Below are positions 4,047-41,725 of a stretch of 64,000 nucleotides of DNA, in pieces. This DNA comes from Vermamoeba vermiformis (lineage: Eukaryota). Below the pieces are notes generated by a model. It was not told the origin of the DNA. It saw nothing but the letters and a program-made list of their open reading frames with translations, and searched no databases. Each line of letters begins with the position of its first letter. The stretch's first letter is position 1. The stretch is from positions 1-64,000 of the forward strand of contig JBEWZL010000301.1 in the NCBI GenBank assembly GCA_045837725.1, in the 5' to 3' direction. Position numbers and translations under genes: made by a program.

Positions 4047-6137
4047 ATGAGTAGAAAACGCAAGTTACCAGCACATCTTGATGATTACATCACAAATAAG
4101 CGGCAAAAGACTACCAATGAGAGTTTCTCTGTTAGCAAAAAGCGTCCAGCTGAGTTGAGCACTAATTCTCGCAAGAAACCAAAGCTTCATAGACAAACAG
4201 AAGATGCGTCTACCAGCAAAAACCAAAAGAAAAAGAAAAAGGAACTGACAGAGGAAGAAAAACTAGCATTGAAGTTGGAAGATGCTGCAAAGTTGTGTAC
4301 AGCCAACAAATGGACTCAAGCTGGAGCATCTTTCACTCCAGCACAAGTTGAAGTTGTATCAAACTGTGGTCCAAGGAACATTAGCCCCTGAAAAGAGGAC
4401 TTCAAACAGATAGATGCATTTTTGCTACTAGGAGATGATTTAATTAATAACTTGGTTGCAAACATGAATGCCAATCGAACTCCAAATGGAATTATCAAAT
4501 ACAAAGCTACTGATCACAACGAAGTCTTGTGATTTTGGATAGCTTTGATAGCATTGGCATTTGTCAAATTTTGATCTCTCGATGATGCATGGGCAGTCAG
4601 GAATTCATTATTTGGCTCCACTACAGTTCAAAATTTGATCACAAAAAACAGATTTCACAAATTACTTACTATGCTTCAAATTGATATAATGGAGTGGTCT
4701 ACCATTATAAACACTAATAGTGCAAAGTACTGGAAGGAACATCAAACCCAAGCTATTGATGATGCTCACCCATGTTGGAGTGGACGATCTTATTTGGTGA
4801 CACACAAGCCTCGAAAGAAAAAACCTGACGGGATTGATCTTTACCTTCGCTGTGATTCAAAAAAGTATTGCTGCCGTTGCATTCCACGGTATGGAGAACT
4901 TGCACCACGAACCAATGAATACTCTTCCTATTGCAAAGAATGGGAGAAATACAATGCACACTGCCAGCTTAACGCTTTACACCAGCTATTGATGGAGCTC
5001 CCAAAAGAGTACAACATTAAATTAATTCGCTTCAAGATTCACTATACTTGGGTTAAAGCAAAATACAGAAAGTAAGCCCCTAAATACATTTAACTTTAAT
5101 TAACTTCCTCAAACAGGTTACTTGCTCCTTTATATTACTGTGATGAACAAAATTGGGAGGCTAGATTTCAACAAGTGAAGCAAACAGTTATTGACAAGTG
5201 CCAAGAGTTGTCTGGATTGCAAATTTCACAGAAGATTGAAAAGCCAGCAAAGTTTACTGGCAAATCGCGCTCCAAGTCATTGATTCCTCAAATAGTGGAG
5301 CAGTTAACTTCAAATCTAGAATACAAAAGTGGACTCTACCATTTTTATATGGATCGAGAGTTTTCATCTGCAGAGATTCAGAAGTATTTGTTTTCAAAAG
5401 GTAATCACTCATGCACACATGTAGATTCTAACATTATACAGACTTTGGCTTAACTTTATCAGCTGGGTCTGATAGACCTTCATACATTTTTCAGCACTAC
5501 TTGCTGCGTGACCTATCTGAGGGCACATGGAAGTCAATCTCTAATGGCAAATACTTGGCTCTAGCGTACAATGATTATGATAAGGTTTGCTTTTTAATAA
5601 ATTGTCACTCTTCAAAAAACACCTCCAAAGACAATCCAAAACCTTTAGTAATTCCTGACTGGAACAAGCATTGCCATTATGTTGATACCTTTGATCAATT
5701 TGTTGAAGAGTTTGATTACCCATACAAGATTCTGACAGTTAAATGTAAGTCAAAGAGTAGAAGTCAATTTACACTTACTCATTTATCTTTAAGAATGCTT
5801 CTTTCATTTTCTATGGTGGATTGTTGAAATCAATAGCTCCATTATCTTTAAATACTTTTCCTCTAAGAAATCTATGCAAAAAGACTTCTTGATGTCATTG
5901 GTTAGCAGTGTAGCAGTTGAACACAGCCAAAGATACATAAATAGAGATGGAAAGCTGTTGTCAACATGCCATTACCCTAATCACATGGTATCAAGAAGAC
6001 CTTCCTACCATTCTTGTGCAGTGTGTGGTTACAAGACAAAATTTCAATGCCTTCAATGTGACAAATTTGTTCACTTCTACTCACATACTGATAAAAAACC
6101 TTGTTGGAAACAGTGCTTCCATTTGAAATTAAAATAA
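4047..6137 (+). mobile_element. piggyBac-like DDD transposase, decayed by in-frame stops and apparently intron-containing
   Basis: piggyBac-type motifs appear in order: TKNRFHKLL, AIDDAHPCWSGR..KP..DGIDLYLRCDS, FYMDREFSS, IPDWNKHCHYVDTFDQ, then a C-terminal Cys-rich domain CAVC..CLQC..H..CWKQCFH. In-frame TGA stops at 4389, 4530 and 4572. Confidence 0.85.
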
Positions 6138-36520: not shown

Positions 36521-38896
36521 ATGAATAAGCTACAATTTGCTTTATTTATCTTCGCTGCGCTTATTCTGGCGACTATCAATGCGAGGATCACGAACCAGAG
36601 GGAGAAAGTTCCAAAACAGTTTGAAATACTCACACGAACGGCTCCAAATCAAATTCATGAATTTAGAATAGCATTGAAGCAAAGGAATACTGATATTTTA
36701 GAGGTAGGAGACTTAATCCGAATTTTCAAGATTTTTTTCTTTTTTTCCTTTATTTATGATATTCGGTTGATTTTGCTAGCAATCCAATTGTTATTTAAAA
36801 TAATGGCAACTCATTAGTACTAATTAATTCATTTTTTAGGCAACTTTGTTGGATGTATCAGATCCAGAGTCGAAAAACTACGGTAAGCCCAACACGACAT
36901 ACAGCTTTATAACATTTGACAAGGCAAATGGTGGTCAAAAGACCGTATTTTGGATTTGATTGCACCCACAGAAAGCGAAATTAAACCGGTTGTGGATTGG
37001 CTCAAGTCGAGTGGTGTGCAGCAGATCGATGTCTCAGGCCGTGACGTCATCAAAGTAGTTGCGCCAGTGCGTGTGATAGAACGCATGTTCCAAACAACAA
37101 TGTACAACTTCAGATCAAAACAGACGGGTACGTACAAATCTGATCGGATCCTTGACCTGCTACGATTGCTGATGAACAGCAACCTTAGTTACTTAGGGAA
37201 TTAATATGTAACAAAAAAAACATCACGAATATTTTTTCGGCTTTACTAGGCTAATCCCAATTTTTTTTATCGTAGGCAAGATCTTCCCTCGTGCATTTGG
37301 TTCGATTAACGTCCCAGATCACCTTAACATTATTGAAATGGTGAGTGGCCTCACTGAGCTAGTGCCAAAACCAAAGAGATTGAAGAGAAACACCGAAACA
37401 ACAAAAGAAAAACGTGGAGTCGCTCGAGCGACGGATCCGTTAGGAGTTATTTACCCAGGAATCCTGCGTAAAATGTATGATCTACCGTCACAATTTCCAG
37501 TCAATCCGAACAGTTCTCTTGGCCTCATTGAATTTCAAAGCGACCAATCGTTCACTTTCTTTGACTTAAATGCTTTCAATGAAATAGTGTCCGAGAACGT
37601 CACCGTGAATGAAAATAACATTATTGGTGAATTTGGTGGTTCTGACACCGAATCATCTCTCGACGTACAGGTAAATATCTATCATAACTATAAACAATAT
37701 TTTTCTTGTTCTTTACACCTTAAAATATTGAACATAACTATTATATTATATTAATTGCTATTACAGTATGGCGGAGCAATAGCGTTAAATACAACACTGT
37801 GGTTTTGGACGGTCGACAGTTGGATGTACGAGTTTGCCACGCAAATATTTGCAGCTCAGAACTACCCACTCGTCGTGTCAATGTCGTGGGGCTGGCCTGA
37901 AGACCAGCAATGTCAAATCACAGCCACTTGCGTAACAAATAATACTCAAGGTTCATATGGCTACGTGAGGAGGGTCAATATCGAGTTCGCGAAGTTAGGA
38001 CTGAAAGGAATCACGCTATTGGCTGCTTCAGGCGATCTAGGTGCGCCTGGTGATGGAAATTCCGAATGTACTGGTGGTCTTTCGACGTCATTTCCTGGCT
38101 CCTCACCGTGGGTCACGAGTGTTGGAGCAACAATGCTGGTCTACGTTCATACCGTACCAAAGAACGTGACCAATCAACCGCCTATTTGTTCTCAGTAAGT
38201 GCTCGTATGTAGTCAATCATATGCTGATTATATTTTCAGAATGTATTGCGCTCGAACTACAAAAGAAGGCACTTGTACTTACCCCAGTAAGCCGTTTTTT
38301 TATTCCTTAAAACCTAAACCACGAGCTAATTTTATTATGTAATAGCCGCATTGATAACATCTGGTGGAGGGTTTTCAGAAGTGACTTCAACGCCTAATTG
38401 GCAAAGGCAATCTGTCCGCTCGTACTTGACATCGGGCGTACCACTGCCAATTGGTCATTTTAATTCAACTAAACGAGCGTATCCTGATGTTTCCGCAAAT
38501 GGTCACAATTACGTTATTTATCAAGACTCGCCGGCGATTGTCGATGGGTAAGTTCAGTGAAAAAAATCCAATTTCAATCGCAGTACTTACTAATTATTTC
38601 AAAGCACTTCTGCTTCATCGCCAGTTTTCGCTGGAGTCGTTTCATTGCTCAACAGCGTCATGTTGAACAACAACAAGTTTCCGCTGGGCTTCATCAATCC
38701 GTTGTTGTATAAGATGGCTGCTGATGATCCAACGACATTTACAGACATTACAACGGGCAACAACTATTGTACTGAACAGTGCTGTGGTAATGTAGGTTAC
38801 GTTGCAACGAGTGGGTGGGATCCGGTCACGGGCTTGGGCACTCCAGTGTTTTCGAAAATGCGATCGTATATCGAAAAGATGTTTATAAATAAATAG
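36521..38896 (+). CDS. Sedolisin/tripeptidyl-peptidase I-like S53 protease
   Basis: Signal plus prodomain (IALKQRN, VSDPES.NYGKW), ESSLDVQY, AASGDLG, RAYPDVSA, TSASSP and GWDPVTGLGTP. Confidence 0.95.
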
Positions 38897-38992
38897 GAGT
38901 CTATGTGGGAGTTCCAAAAACTTGTGATACAATACTGGCCGCAAACGAAAAACTTAATCTTTTTATTTGTATCAAACTGAACACAACCAACG

Positions 38993-40221
38993 ATGTCACA
39001 AACACTCAAACAACTAAAGAAAAATGATAGATCATTCAGTACTTACATATACAAAGTTCTCAAGCAGGTAAATCAATAACGATTAGAACTTTGATCTGAC
39101 GTTTTTTATTGGAAATTAATGCAAATTTATTTTCGCTCCTTGATTTTCATTGTTATATTTACTAGTAATAAATTATTACATCAATTCAATTCAATTAATT
39201 CACGCAACTTTTCTAGGTTCATCCAACTATCGGAATCAGCAATAAAGCTATGGCAATTATGAACACCATTACTTGGTATAATTTTAGAAATATTATACAG
39301 CACGCAGAAGAATTATCAGTAATAGAAAAGAGGGCAACTTTCACATCCAGAGAAATTCAAACTGCAGTTCGCTTAGTCTTGCCAGGTCAACTCGCTAAAC
39401 ATGCAGTATCTGAAGGTAATCTTTACCGCGGTACATTAGCACTACTTATGGACCAGCGATTCACATTAATTTCCAAAAGGTACTAAGGCCGTCACGAAAT
39501 ACTCAGCCACAGGCAAAGGAGCAAATAACCAGCCAGAATCTCGTATCTCACGCGCTGGTTTACAGTTTCCTGGGGGCAGAATTCACCGATTAATCAAAGA
39601 ACAGATTAATTATCAACTGCGAGTCAGCGCTACAGGTCAGATCTCGATCGGATCAGCTTTCTTCACGTGACTCTTATTAACCTCATAATATTATAGCCGC
39701 TGTCTACTTGACAGCTGTTCTAGATTATATTACAGCTGAGGTGTTGGAACTCTCTGGTAATGCTTCCCGGGACATGAAGTAAGTGGATCCGACCGTCAAA
39801 AAGTTCCTTATTCCTAAATTATTCCTGTAGAGTCATTCGAGTTACTCCGCGTCATATACAACTTGCAATTAGAGGCGACGAAGAATTGGATACTTTATTT
39901 CAAAAGTGCATTGTCCCCAGCGGAGGCGTCGTGCCACACATTCATCCGTGGTTGTTGCCACGTGGTTTTAATAACTCCGACAACGGAGAGTGCGAATCCA
40001 GTTCTAGCAACGCCTTTACTTCGACAGGAACTACTTCCTTATTTGGTCAAAGTAACGCACCTGCACCAACTTCTATTTTCGGTTCATTTGGTCAAACAAC
40101 AACTTCAACAAGCACTTTTAGCACATCCGACAAAACACTGAATATGAGCGACCTGCAAACAGCAATTAATAACATTGGATCTGATGACGATGATATAAGC
40201 GGATCTGAAGAGGATTTTTAA
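38993..40221 (+). CDS. Single-chain histone H2B-H2A(.Z-like) fusion with FG-motif/acidic C-terminal tail, 300 aa
   Basis: Exons 38993-39067, 39217-39415, 39480-39635, 39697-39778 and 39831-40221 splice in frame (903 nt). H2B part: [47 protein letters not shown]2A part: [41 protein letters not shown]. Confidence 0.95.
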
Positions 40222-40343
40222 GGAAAGGCGTTTGAACGCAGATAGCTATATTATTAACTAATAAAAATTGGCTTCTATTTTAGTACGTTGAAGTTAAAAA
40301 CGTGCAATTTTTGGGATCAAAACAATTAATCAGATGAATCAAA

Positions 40344-41725
40344 ATGGACACAGAGCTGCAACAAAAAGGGTATTATATTAGTCCTAAAATAGAACTCGTC
40401 CAAATCGAGGGAAAAGGACGAGGTTTCATCGCTCGTGAGCCTCTGAAAGTCGGTGAACTGATCTTCAAAGAAAAACCTTTAGCTGCCGAGGATCGGGCGG
40501 GTAAATATTTTTAAAATTATTAATAAATTATTGTATATTTATTTCATATTTATCCACAAATTACAGACGCGCACAACCTTTTCTGCGTAAATCGTATTTT
40601 TTTTTACACGAGTCCTAACCTTGTTTTTGTAAGGCGACTGGCACAATAAATTTGTACGAGTTTTATTAGAAAAAAAAGAAGAAAGAGAATTGATTTATTG
40701 CCCGCCAAAGTACCCGATCTTGCCCTCGCCAATCAAAGGAGTCTCAAATGACGACTATTCTCGAATGATGAGTCAAATTACAACAAACGCATTTCAAAAA
40801 GGTAATAACAATTAATTATTTCTAGTTCTAAGCGGATCTACCTTTTTGCGAATCCGATCTGACTTTTATAATTGTCTAGGCTCGACTGCTGTGCTAACTG
40901 CACGCAGCAATTTATTCAATAGTAGTTGTTGGCCTAATCTAGTACTGCATTGTAAAGATAATTTTGAAATTTGGGGCTATGTAATTGATGACATTCAAAC
41001 TGGCGAAGAAGTTTGCAATAATTTTCCGGATCTGTACTTGCCAACGAAGCGAAGACAAGGTAATCATATTTAAAGCACCCATATATAATAATATGCTGAT
41101 TCAAAAGCTGCGCATGATATTACAAATAGTTTTTATTTATACTTTGGATGCAGATCTGCTTAAGAACCAATATGGCTTCGATTGCGATTGTAAACGATGC
41201 AATAAGCCAGAGCTATTCCCAAATGATAAGTTATTAGTAGCTGCGTTCGAATTGCCCGATGATCCAGCCGAAAAACAACAAGCAGTTGCGCAGATGGAGA
41301 AAGTTTATAATACTTTAGACTACGGAACACCAAATTACGACCAGAAATTCGAAGAAAATCCAGCAATGTATATAGAGAGATTAGAAGAGTTTATTAAACA
41401 GCCGTTTGGATCGCGTTGGCCGAAAGCGTATTTAGGAAAGTGCCATTGGCGATTAAACGTTGTTAGACAAAATTTAATACAAGAATTAATGGCCGTAGAT
41501 CACTTAGAACGCGCGATAGATTTATTAATAGATCAAATGATAGCTAACGATAAAATTTTGCCGAAGTGGCATCTGCAGAAGTTAACGGCGTACACGACGC
41601 TCAATGAATTGATGGCAAGATTAAATTTGGATAGATTAACGAACGCTATTAAACGATTGAAGAAAGGTGAAGTGGATCTGCAGTATTACAAAGAACTGCT
41701 TTTTGTGTACAAAGAAAAAGAATAA
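40344..41725 (+). CDS. SMYD-like SET-domain protein lacking MYND, with altered catalytic motifs
   Basis: GKGRGFIAREPLKVGELIFKEKP, TNAF, FNSSCWPN, IQTGEEV, post-SET YGFDCDCKRC and a helical C-terminal domain. Confidence 0.88.

Follow-up and report, generated by a model that had tools for sequence, protein, structure and literature searches.

The stretch of DNA analysed here, termed the window, comprises positions 1 to 64,000 of contig JBEWZL010000301.1 (assembly GCA_045837725.1), which was deposited under the name Vermamoeba vermiformis. At 38993-40221, on the forward strand, it carries a gene of five exons (the window gene) whose spliced product (the window protein) is a single chain with a histone H2B fold followed by a histone H2A fold, that is, an H2B-H2A doublet. 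A description made earlier from the sequence alone (the original prediction) had proposed a spliced nuclear gene for a fused H2B and H2A.Z at this locus. The parts of the gene are as follows, in window coordinates.

Exon 1, 38993..39067, + strand: start codon, head of 13 residues and start of H2B alpha1 (residues 1-25); H2B profile positions 1-13
Intron 1, 39068..39216, + strand: 149 nt, GT-AG, guanine plus cytosine (GC) content 0.24, stops in all three frames
Exon 2, 39217..39415, + strand: H2B fold, residues 26-91 and the first base of codon 92; Pfam Histone, E 3e-8; H2B profile positions 13-79
Intron 2, 39416..39479, + strand: 64 nt, GT-AG, phase 1 within a Gly codon
Exon 3, 39480..39635, + strand: end of H2B alphaC, linker, H2A alphaN to loop L1, with the fusion junction; H2A profile positions 4-38
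Linker coding stretch, 39506..39538, + strand: residues 101-111 (11 residues)
Intron 3, 39636..39696, + strand: 61 nt, GT-AG
Exon 4, 39697..39778, + strand: H2A alpha2 (ATAAVY...NASRDMK); H2A profile positions 34-61
Intron 4, 39779..39830, + strand: 52 nt, GT-AG
Exon 5, first part, 39831..39963, + strand: H2A alpha3, alphaC and docking segment; Pfam Histone_H2A_C, E 1e-8; H2A profile positions 61-104
Exon 5, second part, 39964..40221, + strand: tail of 85 residues (216-300), with SGSEEDF at 40198-40218, then the stop codon
AATAAA, 40260..40265, + strand: possible polyadenylation signal, 39 nt 3' of the stop codon

Joining of the exons gave a stop-free coding sequence (CDS) of 903 nt encoding 300 amino acids (aa), and the five in-frame exons and GT-AG introns of the original prediction were thus confirmed. 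The introns have a GC content of 0.24-0.39 and the CDS one of 0.415, and as no intron length is a multiple of 3, retention of any of the four would break the frame. Pfam matched two of the four translations of exons 2-5 (exon 2, Histone; exon 5, Histone_H2A_C), and exons 3 and 4, which are too short to score alone, gave no Pfam match singly. Profiles of the H2B and H2A halves, made from 20 doublets, tiled the exons in order, and the spliced product scored 137.0 bits with the H2B profile and 146.7 bits with the H2A profile, values comparable to those of other family members. No other match to either profile was found in the six frames of the 64-kb window. The structure of the gene and the order of its folds, H2B and then H2A, are demonstrated by these results. 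A histone 3' stem-loop (RF00032) was not listed at E<=1 in 38000-41000.

The end of H2B (GTKAVTKYS), the linker and the start of H2A form one uninterrupted stretch inside exon 3, and since the junction lies within this single exon the fusion stands whatever splice model is chosen. The best solved-structure matches of exon 3 were engineered single-chain H2B-H2A proteins, over query residues 1-50. A 665-nt contig from DNA run X1 spans 39229-39893, junction included, with 0 differences, and the depth of X1 was 383 on the gene and 399 and 306 on its flanks. The junction was thereby crossed with no sign of a misjoin in exon 3, although X1 may be the window's own source and so offers weak independent support. 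As the original prediction had held, the fusion of H2B and H2A is real and independent of splicing.

The window protein consists of a head (residues 1-13), the H2B fold (14-100), the linker (101-111), the H2A fold (about 113-215) and the tail (216-300). The N-terminal tail of H2B is typically about 30 residues long. In the window protein this long basic tail is absent, and the fold is preceded by 13 residues with a net charge of +3. Neither does the H2A part have an N-terminal tail of its own, as it begins right after the 11-residue linker from H2B; by one measure the domains are 12 residues apart, and those of the engineered chimeras P0076 and P0105 are 5-6 residues apart. Motifs of the acidic patch and of DNA contact, for example AEVLEL and GDEELD, are kept, as judged by eye. 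The net charge is +6 and +4 for the core halves, -11 for the tail and +2 for the whole protein.

The tail is rich in S, T, N and G, contains three phenylalanine-glycine (FG) dipeptides, has eight acidic residues among its last 20 and ends in SGSEEDF. No Pfam family, the nucleoporin FG-repeat families and SRP40_C included, was matched at E<=1 in the 86 residues searched as the tail. Its look-alikes by a protein language model were FG nucleoporins at 0.86, which is below the mark of 0.9 and serves as a lead only; by composition alone, then, the tail resembles FG nucleoporins. H2A.X is defined by a C-terminal motif of SQ, E or D and a hydrophobic residue, and no SQ of this kind was found in the window protein, which ends S-E-E-D-F. 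The original prediction had recognised the fused folds correctly and had missed this 85-residue FG and acidic tail, the most distinctive conserved feature that the protein has in common with its closest relative (below). A second X1 contig carries five clustered differences in the tail at 40056-40107, at a depth of 153 of 500, of which three are silent and two (F257L and Q259E) change residues; this contig could represent another allele or a second copy that is nearly identical.

The second half of the window protein was compared with human and yeast H2A.Z at 16 diagnostic columns, in which the two H2A.Z proteins agree and both differ from human H2A. Ten of these columns carried the H2A.Z-type residue, two the canonical residue and four neither. 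Exon 5 gave about 47 bits to solved chains of H2A.Z and about 38 to those of canonical H2A. When the H2A halves were analysed with IQ-TREE (47 rows, 104 columns), the window protein fell in a clade with 10 H2A.Z singlets and 12 Z-type doublets (support 100/93), and in the same H2A.Z clade after addition of its closest relative (48 rows, 99/93). On these comparisons of sequence the H2A.Z affinity of the second half, as first proposed, is demonstrated.

The family of H2B-H2A doublets

The closest relative of the window protein is P0324, a metagenome protein of 428 aa that is likewise an H2B-then-H2A doublet. The H2B halves of the two are 78% identical and are sisters at 99/95, and the translation of exon 2 is 77% identical to P0324. 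The start codon chosen for the window gene, the first ATG past an in-frame stop, gives a head of the same length as that of P0324. The H2A halves are 61% identical, and that of P0324 lies on the canonical side of the tree (96/93), while an approximately unbiased (AU) test did not reject a tree in which the H2A halves of P0324 and the window protein are sisters (p 0.136). The H2A half could have been replaced as a domain or have diverged fast, or the H2B half and the tail could have undergone gene conversion. In an alignment of the tails 34 of 72 residues agree, the local alignment stopping at residue 333 of P0324; TSLFGQ, FGSFGQT and DLQ-x-A-x-NN are common to both, and the last seven residues, SGSEEDF, are identical by eye. 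The tail of P0324 is the longer of the two, and between its FG region and its acidic end lies an SRP40_C (Nopp140-type) domain (residues 346-381, E 4.6e-9). A histone is here fused to a nucleolar-phosphoprotein domain.

The cluster of P0324 holds forms of 428-438 aa on contigs of about 2.3 kb, and pieces of 59-70 aa and 197-250 aa, some of them on contigs of 420-445 kb. We infer that the former are spliced transcripts and the latter genomic exons, and on this reading of the long forms the P0324-type relative would be expressed as one open reading frame (ORF). Two fragments of the P0324 gene bear on its introns: P0394 ends in KHAVSEG followed by an intron-like read-through, which fits intron 2 of the window gene, and P0395 starts with VRIVPRQ, which fits intron 4. 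The fragment sequences are thus consistent with positions of introns 2 and 4 that are common to both genes. In an AlphaFold2 model of P0324 the predicted local distance difference test (pLDDT) score was 90-99 over residues about 10-210, with helices that match H2B alpha1-alphaC and H2A alphaN-alphaC, and below 50 in the tail, which is predicted to be disordered except for a short helix at DLQ-x-A-x-NN. This model superposed on the single-chain H2B-H2A chimera 6w4l with a template modelling (TM) score of 0.97 and a root-mean-square deviation of 1.0 A, and on the Melbournevirus doublet 7n8n_B with a TM score of 0.84 at about 33% identity.

A search from the first hit returned mostly H2B-then-H2A chains. 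Among 1.84 billion representatives at 50% identity, a profile search gave 20,879 matches at E<=1e-3, singlets included, and doublets made up 129 of the best 150 of these; as the 150th still scored 242 bits, more doublets exist beyond them. By profile, 231 of the 284 sequences collected were adjacent H2B-then-H2A doublets. The matches include three laboratory chimeras, and some vertebrate rows are gene-model fusions in the order H2A-then-H2B. Named doublets came from Pyxidicula and Copromyxa (Tubulinea), Mastigella and Pelomyxa (Evosea), and Paramoeba and Balamuthia (Discosea), so that labelled doublets span all three amoebozoan phyla; Stereomyxa and Vannella are further source names, and one doublet derives from a green-alga transcriptome. 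Both the Pelomyxa schiedti protein KAH3767910.1 (P0149), annotated 'histone H2A', and the Balamuthia mandrillaris 'Histone H2B type 1-A' (P0122) are doublets, and neither they nor P0324 are called so by their source names. The search of related genomes suggested at the outset thus yielded relatives, the Pelomyxa and Balamuthia doublets and P0324 among them, and it is demonstrated that the window protein belongs to a very large family, present in public databases, of doublets of cellular type. The window gene is therefore not a singular oddity.

Linkers in the family vary widely in sequence and run from 5 to about 58 residues. The last residue is F, Y or W in 87 of 217 natural doublets (40%), as against a background of 5.6%, and many of these aromatic ends are H2A.X-like, of the form SQE[YF] (the ends include SQEY, SQEF and SQDY); from their sequences, H2B-H2A.X doublets seem common. 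Some Z-type doublets end in [ST]QEF, a motif that, to our knowledge, ordinary H2A.Z lacks. P0149 is also of H2A.Z type, with 11 of the 16 diagnostic columns, but has a linker of 55 residues and a short tail ending in STQEF. Three sequences of the set, the window protein included, have a tail that combines FG dipeptides with an acid-rich end and a final aromatic residue. When the core of one member, P0111, was modelled in complex with its own last 45 residues, the score was 0.23, the mark being 0.34.

Metagenomes were also scanned with the H2A.Z-like part of exon 5. This gave 80 H2A.Z-type loci, of which L060 alone had any H2B match, and no match that was retained reached the end of the tail, all of them lying within query residues 1-98. 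At 1100-3200 of L060, a contig with a GC content of 0.59, two doublet genes stand in tandem. Both have GT-AG introns, and one is of canonical type and ends in AQEF, the other being Z-like with the end ADEEDF; their junctions lie within single exons, and their intron positions differ from those of the window gene.

A few members of the family have further domains or repeats. The Mastigella eilhardi transcripts P0113 and P0136 encode a doublet that is followed by about 15 FG repeats, then by a ubiquitin-like domain (Pfam ubiquitin, E 1.3e-14) and last by an acidic end. For P0026, precomputed domains point to ubiquitin ahead of a doublet. P0031, an MMETSP transcript of 302 aa, is a Z-type doublet in whose linker of 57 residues part of the H2B alpha3-alphaC segment is repeated.

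Single-chain H2B-H2A.Z and H2B-H2A proteins have also been engineered (4nft, 2jss, 4m6b, 6k0c, 6w4l), with the same topology and nearly the same join as the window protein. The two halves of the window protein are 67% and 66% identical to P0105, a human H2B-H2A.Z chimera, and 58 of 87 residues of the H2B half are identical to the H2B part of human chimeras. By the titles of the structure entries, the engineered fused dimer folds and binds chaperones of H2A.Z. These constructs are tail-less and have a shorter linker, whereas the window protein is natural and spliced and has a tail of 85 residues.

Cellular context and viral doublets

The neighbours of the gene in the window encode RasGEF_N, ABC transporter, F-box, LRR, EGF/PSI and glutathionylspermidine synthase domains and a transposase fragment, and no viral hallmark domain was found among the 29 large ORFs scanned. 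The GC content of the gene is 0.39 and that of its flanks 0.42 and 0.36, with no compositional break. With its introns, its cellular neighbours and its even composition, the gene is of host type, in agreement with the original prediction, and its cellular context is demonstrated. The transposase fragment, of PiggyBac type (DDE_Tnp_1_7, E 2e-6), lies at 4575-5075. The spacers on both sides of the gene are very short, with 96 nt from the stop codon of the upstream sedolisin-like gene (38897-38992) and 122 nt to the likely ATG of the next gene (40222-40343), and because of this the promoter must be tiny or overlap a neighbouring gene.

Doublets are typical of giant viruses of amoebae, according to passages of PMC8357426, PMC9145170 and PMC11222145. 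The H2B-H2A doublets of Marseilleviridae (H-beta/H-alpha; Melbournevirus, 7n8n) resemble the window protein in being one chain, with H2B first, a short connector and short or absent N-terminal tails, and the marseillevirus-like doublets of IMG/VR are single uninterrupted ORFs with basic tails. The window gene is unlike them in its four introns, its second half of H2A.Z type and its acidic FG tail. IMG/VR was scanned twice, with 11 and 19 locus rows (30 in all, several of them from the same contigs); among these are two genomes of marseillevirus size, and triplets and quadruplets also occur.

In the tree of H2B halves a clade (99/94) united the window protein with every one of the 23 cellular-type doublets and with 24 singlet H2B rows, two of which are taken from engineered chimeras; all five viral rows fell outside it. 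In the tree of H2A halves the two marseillevirus-like rows, L009 and L010, lay outside cellular H2A and H2A.Z; their long branch stood apart from all cellular H2A and H2A.Z at 100/100 and from H2B at 100/96. A quick concatenated tree, in which L009 and L010 were set as the outgroup, placed nine of 15 viral rows outside the clade of 59 (98*) that holds the window protein, and nested L002 and the pair L093/L096 among the cellular-type doublets. Such nested viral contigs fit capture by a virus from its host, or host contigs binned as viral, equally well as the reverse. As described in passages of PMC5704553 and PMC10919886, each half of the viral doublets branches outside the diversity of eukaryotic histones. 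Both halves of the window protein lie inside cellular clades, unlike those of Marseilleviridae-type doublets, and the separate phylogenies that had been called for showed no grouping with marseillevirus-like doublets. The gene is cellular.

L093 and L096 are two contigs of one IMG/VR giant-virus bin, with a GC content of 0.60, one bearing a Z-like and the other a canonical-type doublet, and the two doublets have in common an acidic tail that begins GWDDRFDD; a recent capture, or host contigs sorted into a viral bin, may account for them. The canonical and Z-like pair of L060 parallels the pair in this bin.

The organism that carries the gene is a separate matter. The stretch 38600-40600 is also present in metagenomes from water and in runs labelled as ten other organisms, and the contig may belong to a contaminant or an associate and not to the labelled species.

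The proposed fused dimer and its alternatives

We consider it probable, on sequence grounds, that an intact nuclear gene of a protist, itself probably amoebozoan, makes a single-chain H2B-H2A.Z histone, and that this forms one obligate nucleosomal variant dimer with a separate disordered tail. The two halves would fold on each other as an ordinary H2A-H2B handshake dimer, as they do in the engineered single chains. Remodellers exchange H2A and H2B as a dimer, and a fused dimer could for this reason be deposited as a unit; it would enter nucleosomes as such, with H2A.Z covalently tied to one particular H2B. The ordinary N-terminal tail of H2A would be replaced by the linker, with merely 13 residues ahead of the H2B fold. 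The disordered tail would be a separate module, with FG dipeptides in spacers rich in S, T and Q and then an acidic run to SGSEEDF. Its end has an S-x-x-acidic pattern, which we take to be of the casein kinase 2 (CK2) type, and is similar to the acidic-aromatic caps with which chaperones grip H2A-H2B. As our first guess, the CK2-type acidic end would screen or modulate the basic surface that binds DNA, and the FG stretch would contact transport receptors. The special chromatin type and the chaperone decoy put forward in the original prediction are likewise guesses.

In trypanosomes H2A.Z pairs with H2B.V. Double-variant nucleosomes of H2A.Z and H2B.Z are described for Apicomplexa in passages of PMC3594968. 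In both lineages H2A.Z and its dedicated H2B are separate proteins, whereas the window protein would enforce the pairing by a peptide bond. Eukaryotes are, as a rule, without fused histones according to passages of PMC10919886. No description of a cellular H2B-H2A doublet was found in the full-text literature, supplements and subscription journals lying outside its coverage, and none of an FG or acidic disordered tail on a histone was found in the literature. The Dictyostelium variants H2Bv/H2Av were considered as possible doublets; the passages found gave this no support.

Several points weigh against this interpretation. The roles proposed for the tail are guesses from composition and short motifs, and the tail varies within the DNA sample, as the F257L change of the second X1 contig deletes one FG. 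The assignment to H2A.Z has to accommodate the four diagnostic columns with residues of neither type, an identity of 66% to human H2A.Z that is barely above the 62% to human H2A, and a support of only 88 for the Z group in a quick H2A tree of 99 rows, which is of limited resolution. An AU test on this tree was uninformative because the constrained search beat the likelihood of the free search, and the groups in the careful H2A tree were named after earlier trees had been viewed. The three large RNA runs X21-X23, which bear the species label of the best-matching DNA run (46-48 in 100 of each read), gave 0 reads on 38600-40600; as two neighbouring genes also had 0 reads, these runs are no test of expression. 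A further 15 runs, 11 of them RNA by record or guess, each contained less than a fifth of the sampled words and count as no evidence.

A role away from the nucleosome seems rather unlikely to us. The histone pair would here be a protein-binding module, and the FG and acidic tail would send the protein to pores, the nucleolus or a soluble pool, for example as a decoy or buffer for importins and the chaperones of H2A.Z-H2B. The long, acidic, disordered tail with its FG-nucleoporin look-alikes (0.86, a lead only) would suit such a role, as would the SRP40_C (Nopp140-type) domain in the tail of P0324, the Mastigella doublets with FG repeats and a ubiquitin-like domain, and the net charge of only +2 on the whole protein; SOS (1q9c), moreover, is a cellular protein whose tandem histone-fold domain has a role outside chromatin. 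However, the folds of the window protein show 62-68% identity to the H2B and H2A/H2A.Z of human nucleosomes, as against 22% for the SOS domain, its core halves are basic, and by eye the acidic-patch and DNA-contact motifs are kept, all of which speaks against such a role. Capture of the doublet from an integrated nucleocytoviricota genome, with introns gained later, is improbable. In its favour may be set the doublets of giant viruses of amoebae mentioned above, the nesting of L002, L093 and L096 and the presence of canonical-type and Z-like doublets, both acidic-tailed, in one viral bin. The nesting, however, equally fits host-to-virus capture or misplaced host contigs, and the gene is interrupted by four introns of spliceosomal type, two of them placed consistently with the introns of a relative's gene. 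In addition, the ORFs scanned lack viral hallmarks, the GC content and DNA depth of the gene match those of its flanks, and viral rows lie outside the clades of the window protein in five of five cases for H2B and in nine of 15 in the concatenated tree (L009 and L010 by their setting as outgroup).

Two further explanations carry still less weight. It is very improbable that the chain is a precursor, cut in the linker after translation into an ordinary H2B and a tailed H2A.Z. The linker is short, polar and presumably exposed, the pLDDT of the linker region of P0324 (about 80) is below that of the folds, and the variation of linkers in length and sequence across the family would be compatible with cutting; yet no conserved cleavage motif was seen in the linkers of alignments A1 and A2, and engineered and viral doublets function uncut, to judge by their titles and descriptions. 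That the gene is dead or artefactual, whether as a pseudogene, an assembly misjoin or a functionless gene on a contaminant contig, can hardly be credited. RNA support was not obtained from X21-X23, and the organism bearing this contig may be another than its label says, as the runs under the same label lack even the neighbouring genes. Against this stand a frame of 300 codons that is open over five exons with canonical splice sites, profile scores as high as those of other family members, the X1 contig across the junction and the specific tail motifs conserved with P0324.

In present-day accounts of how histones evolved, fused core histones are assigned to viruses and archaea. A spliced nuclear doublet gene, together with hundreds of doublets in amoebozoan transcriptomes and genomes and in metagenomes, weakens the premises of these accounts and offers a testable alternative, in which viruses of amoebae could have taken their doublets ready-made from their hosts. 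The window gene would also be a natural means of locking H2A.Z to one H2B. It may be, though we would put this forward as a speculative proposal only, that Amoebozoa, and perhaps other protists, keep a whole second set of histones in which H2B is joined to H2A or to H2A.Z in a single chain, with acidic tails that resemble FG nucleoporins. These doublets would be either the source of the giant-virus doublets or survivors of a fused stage proposed for the early evolution of nucleosomes, the FG tail linking variant chromatin to nuclear transport receptors or pores.

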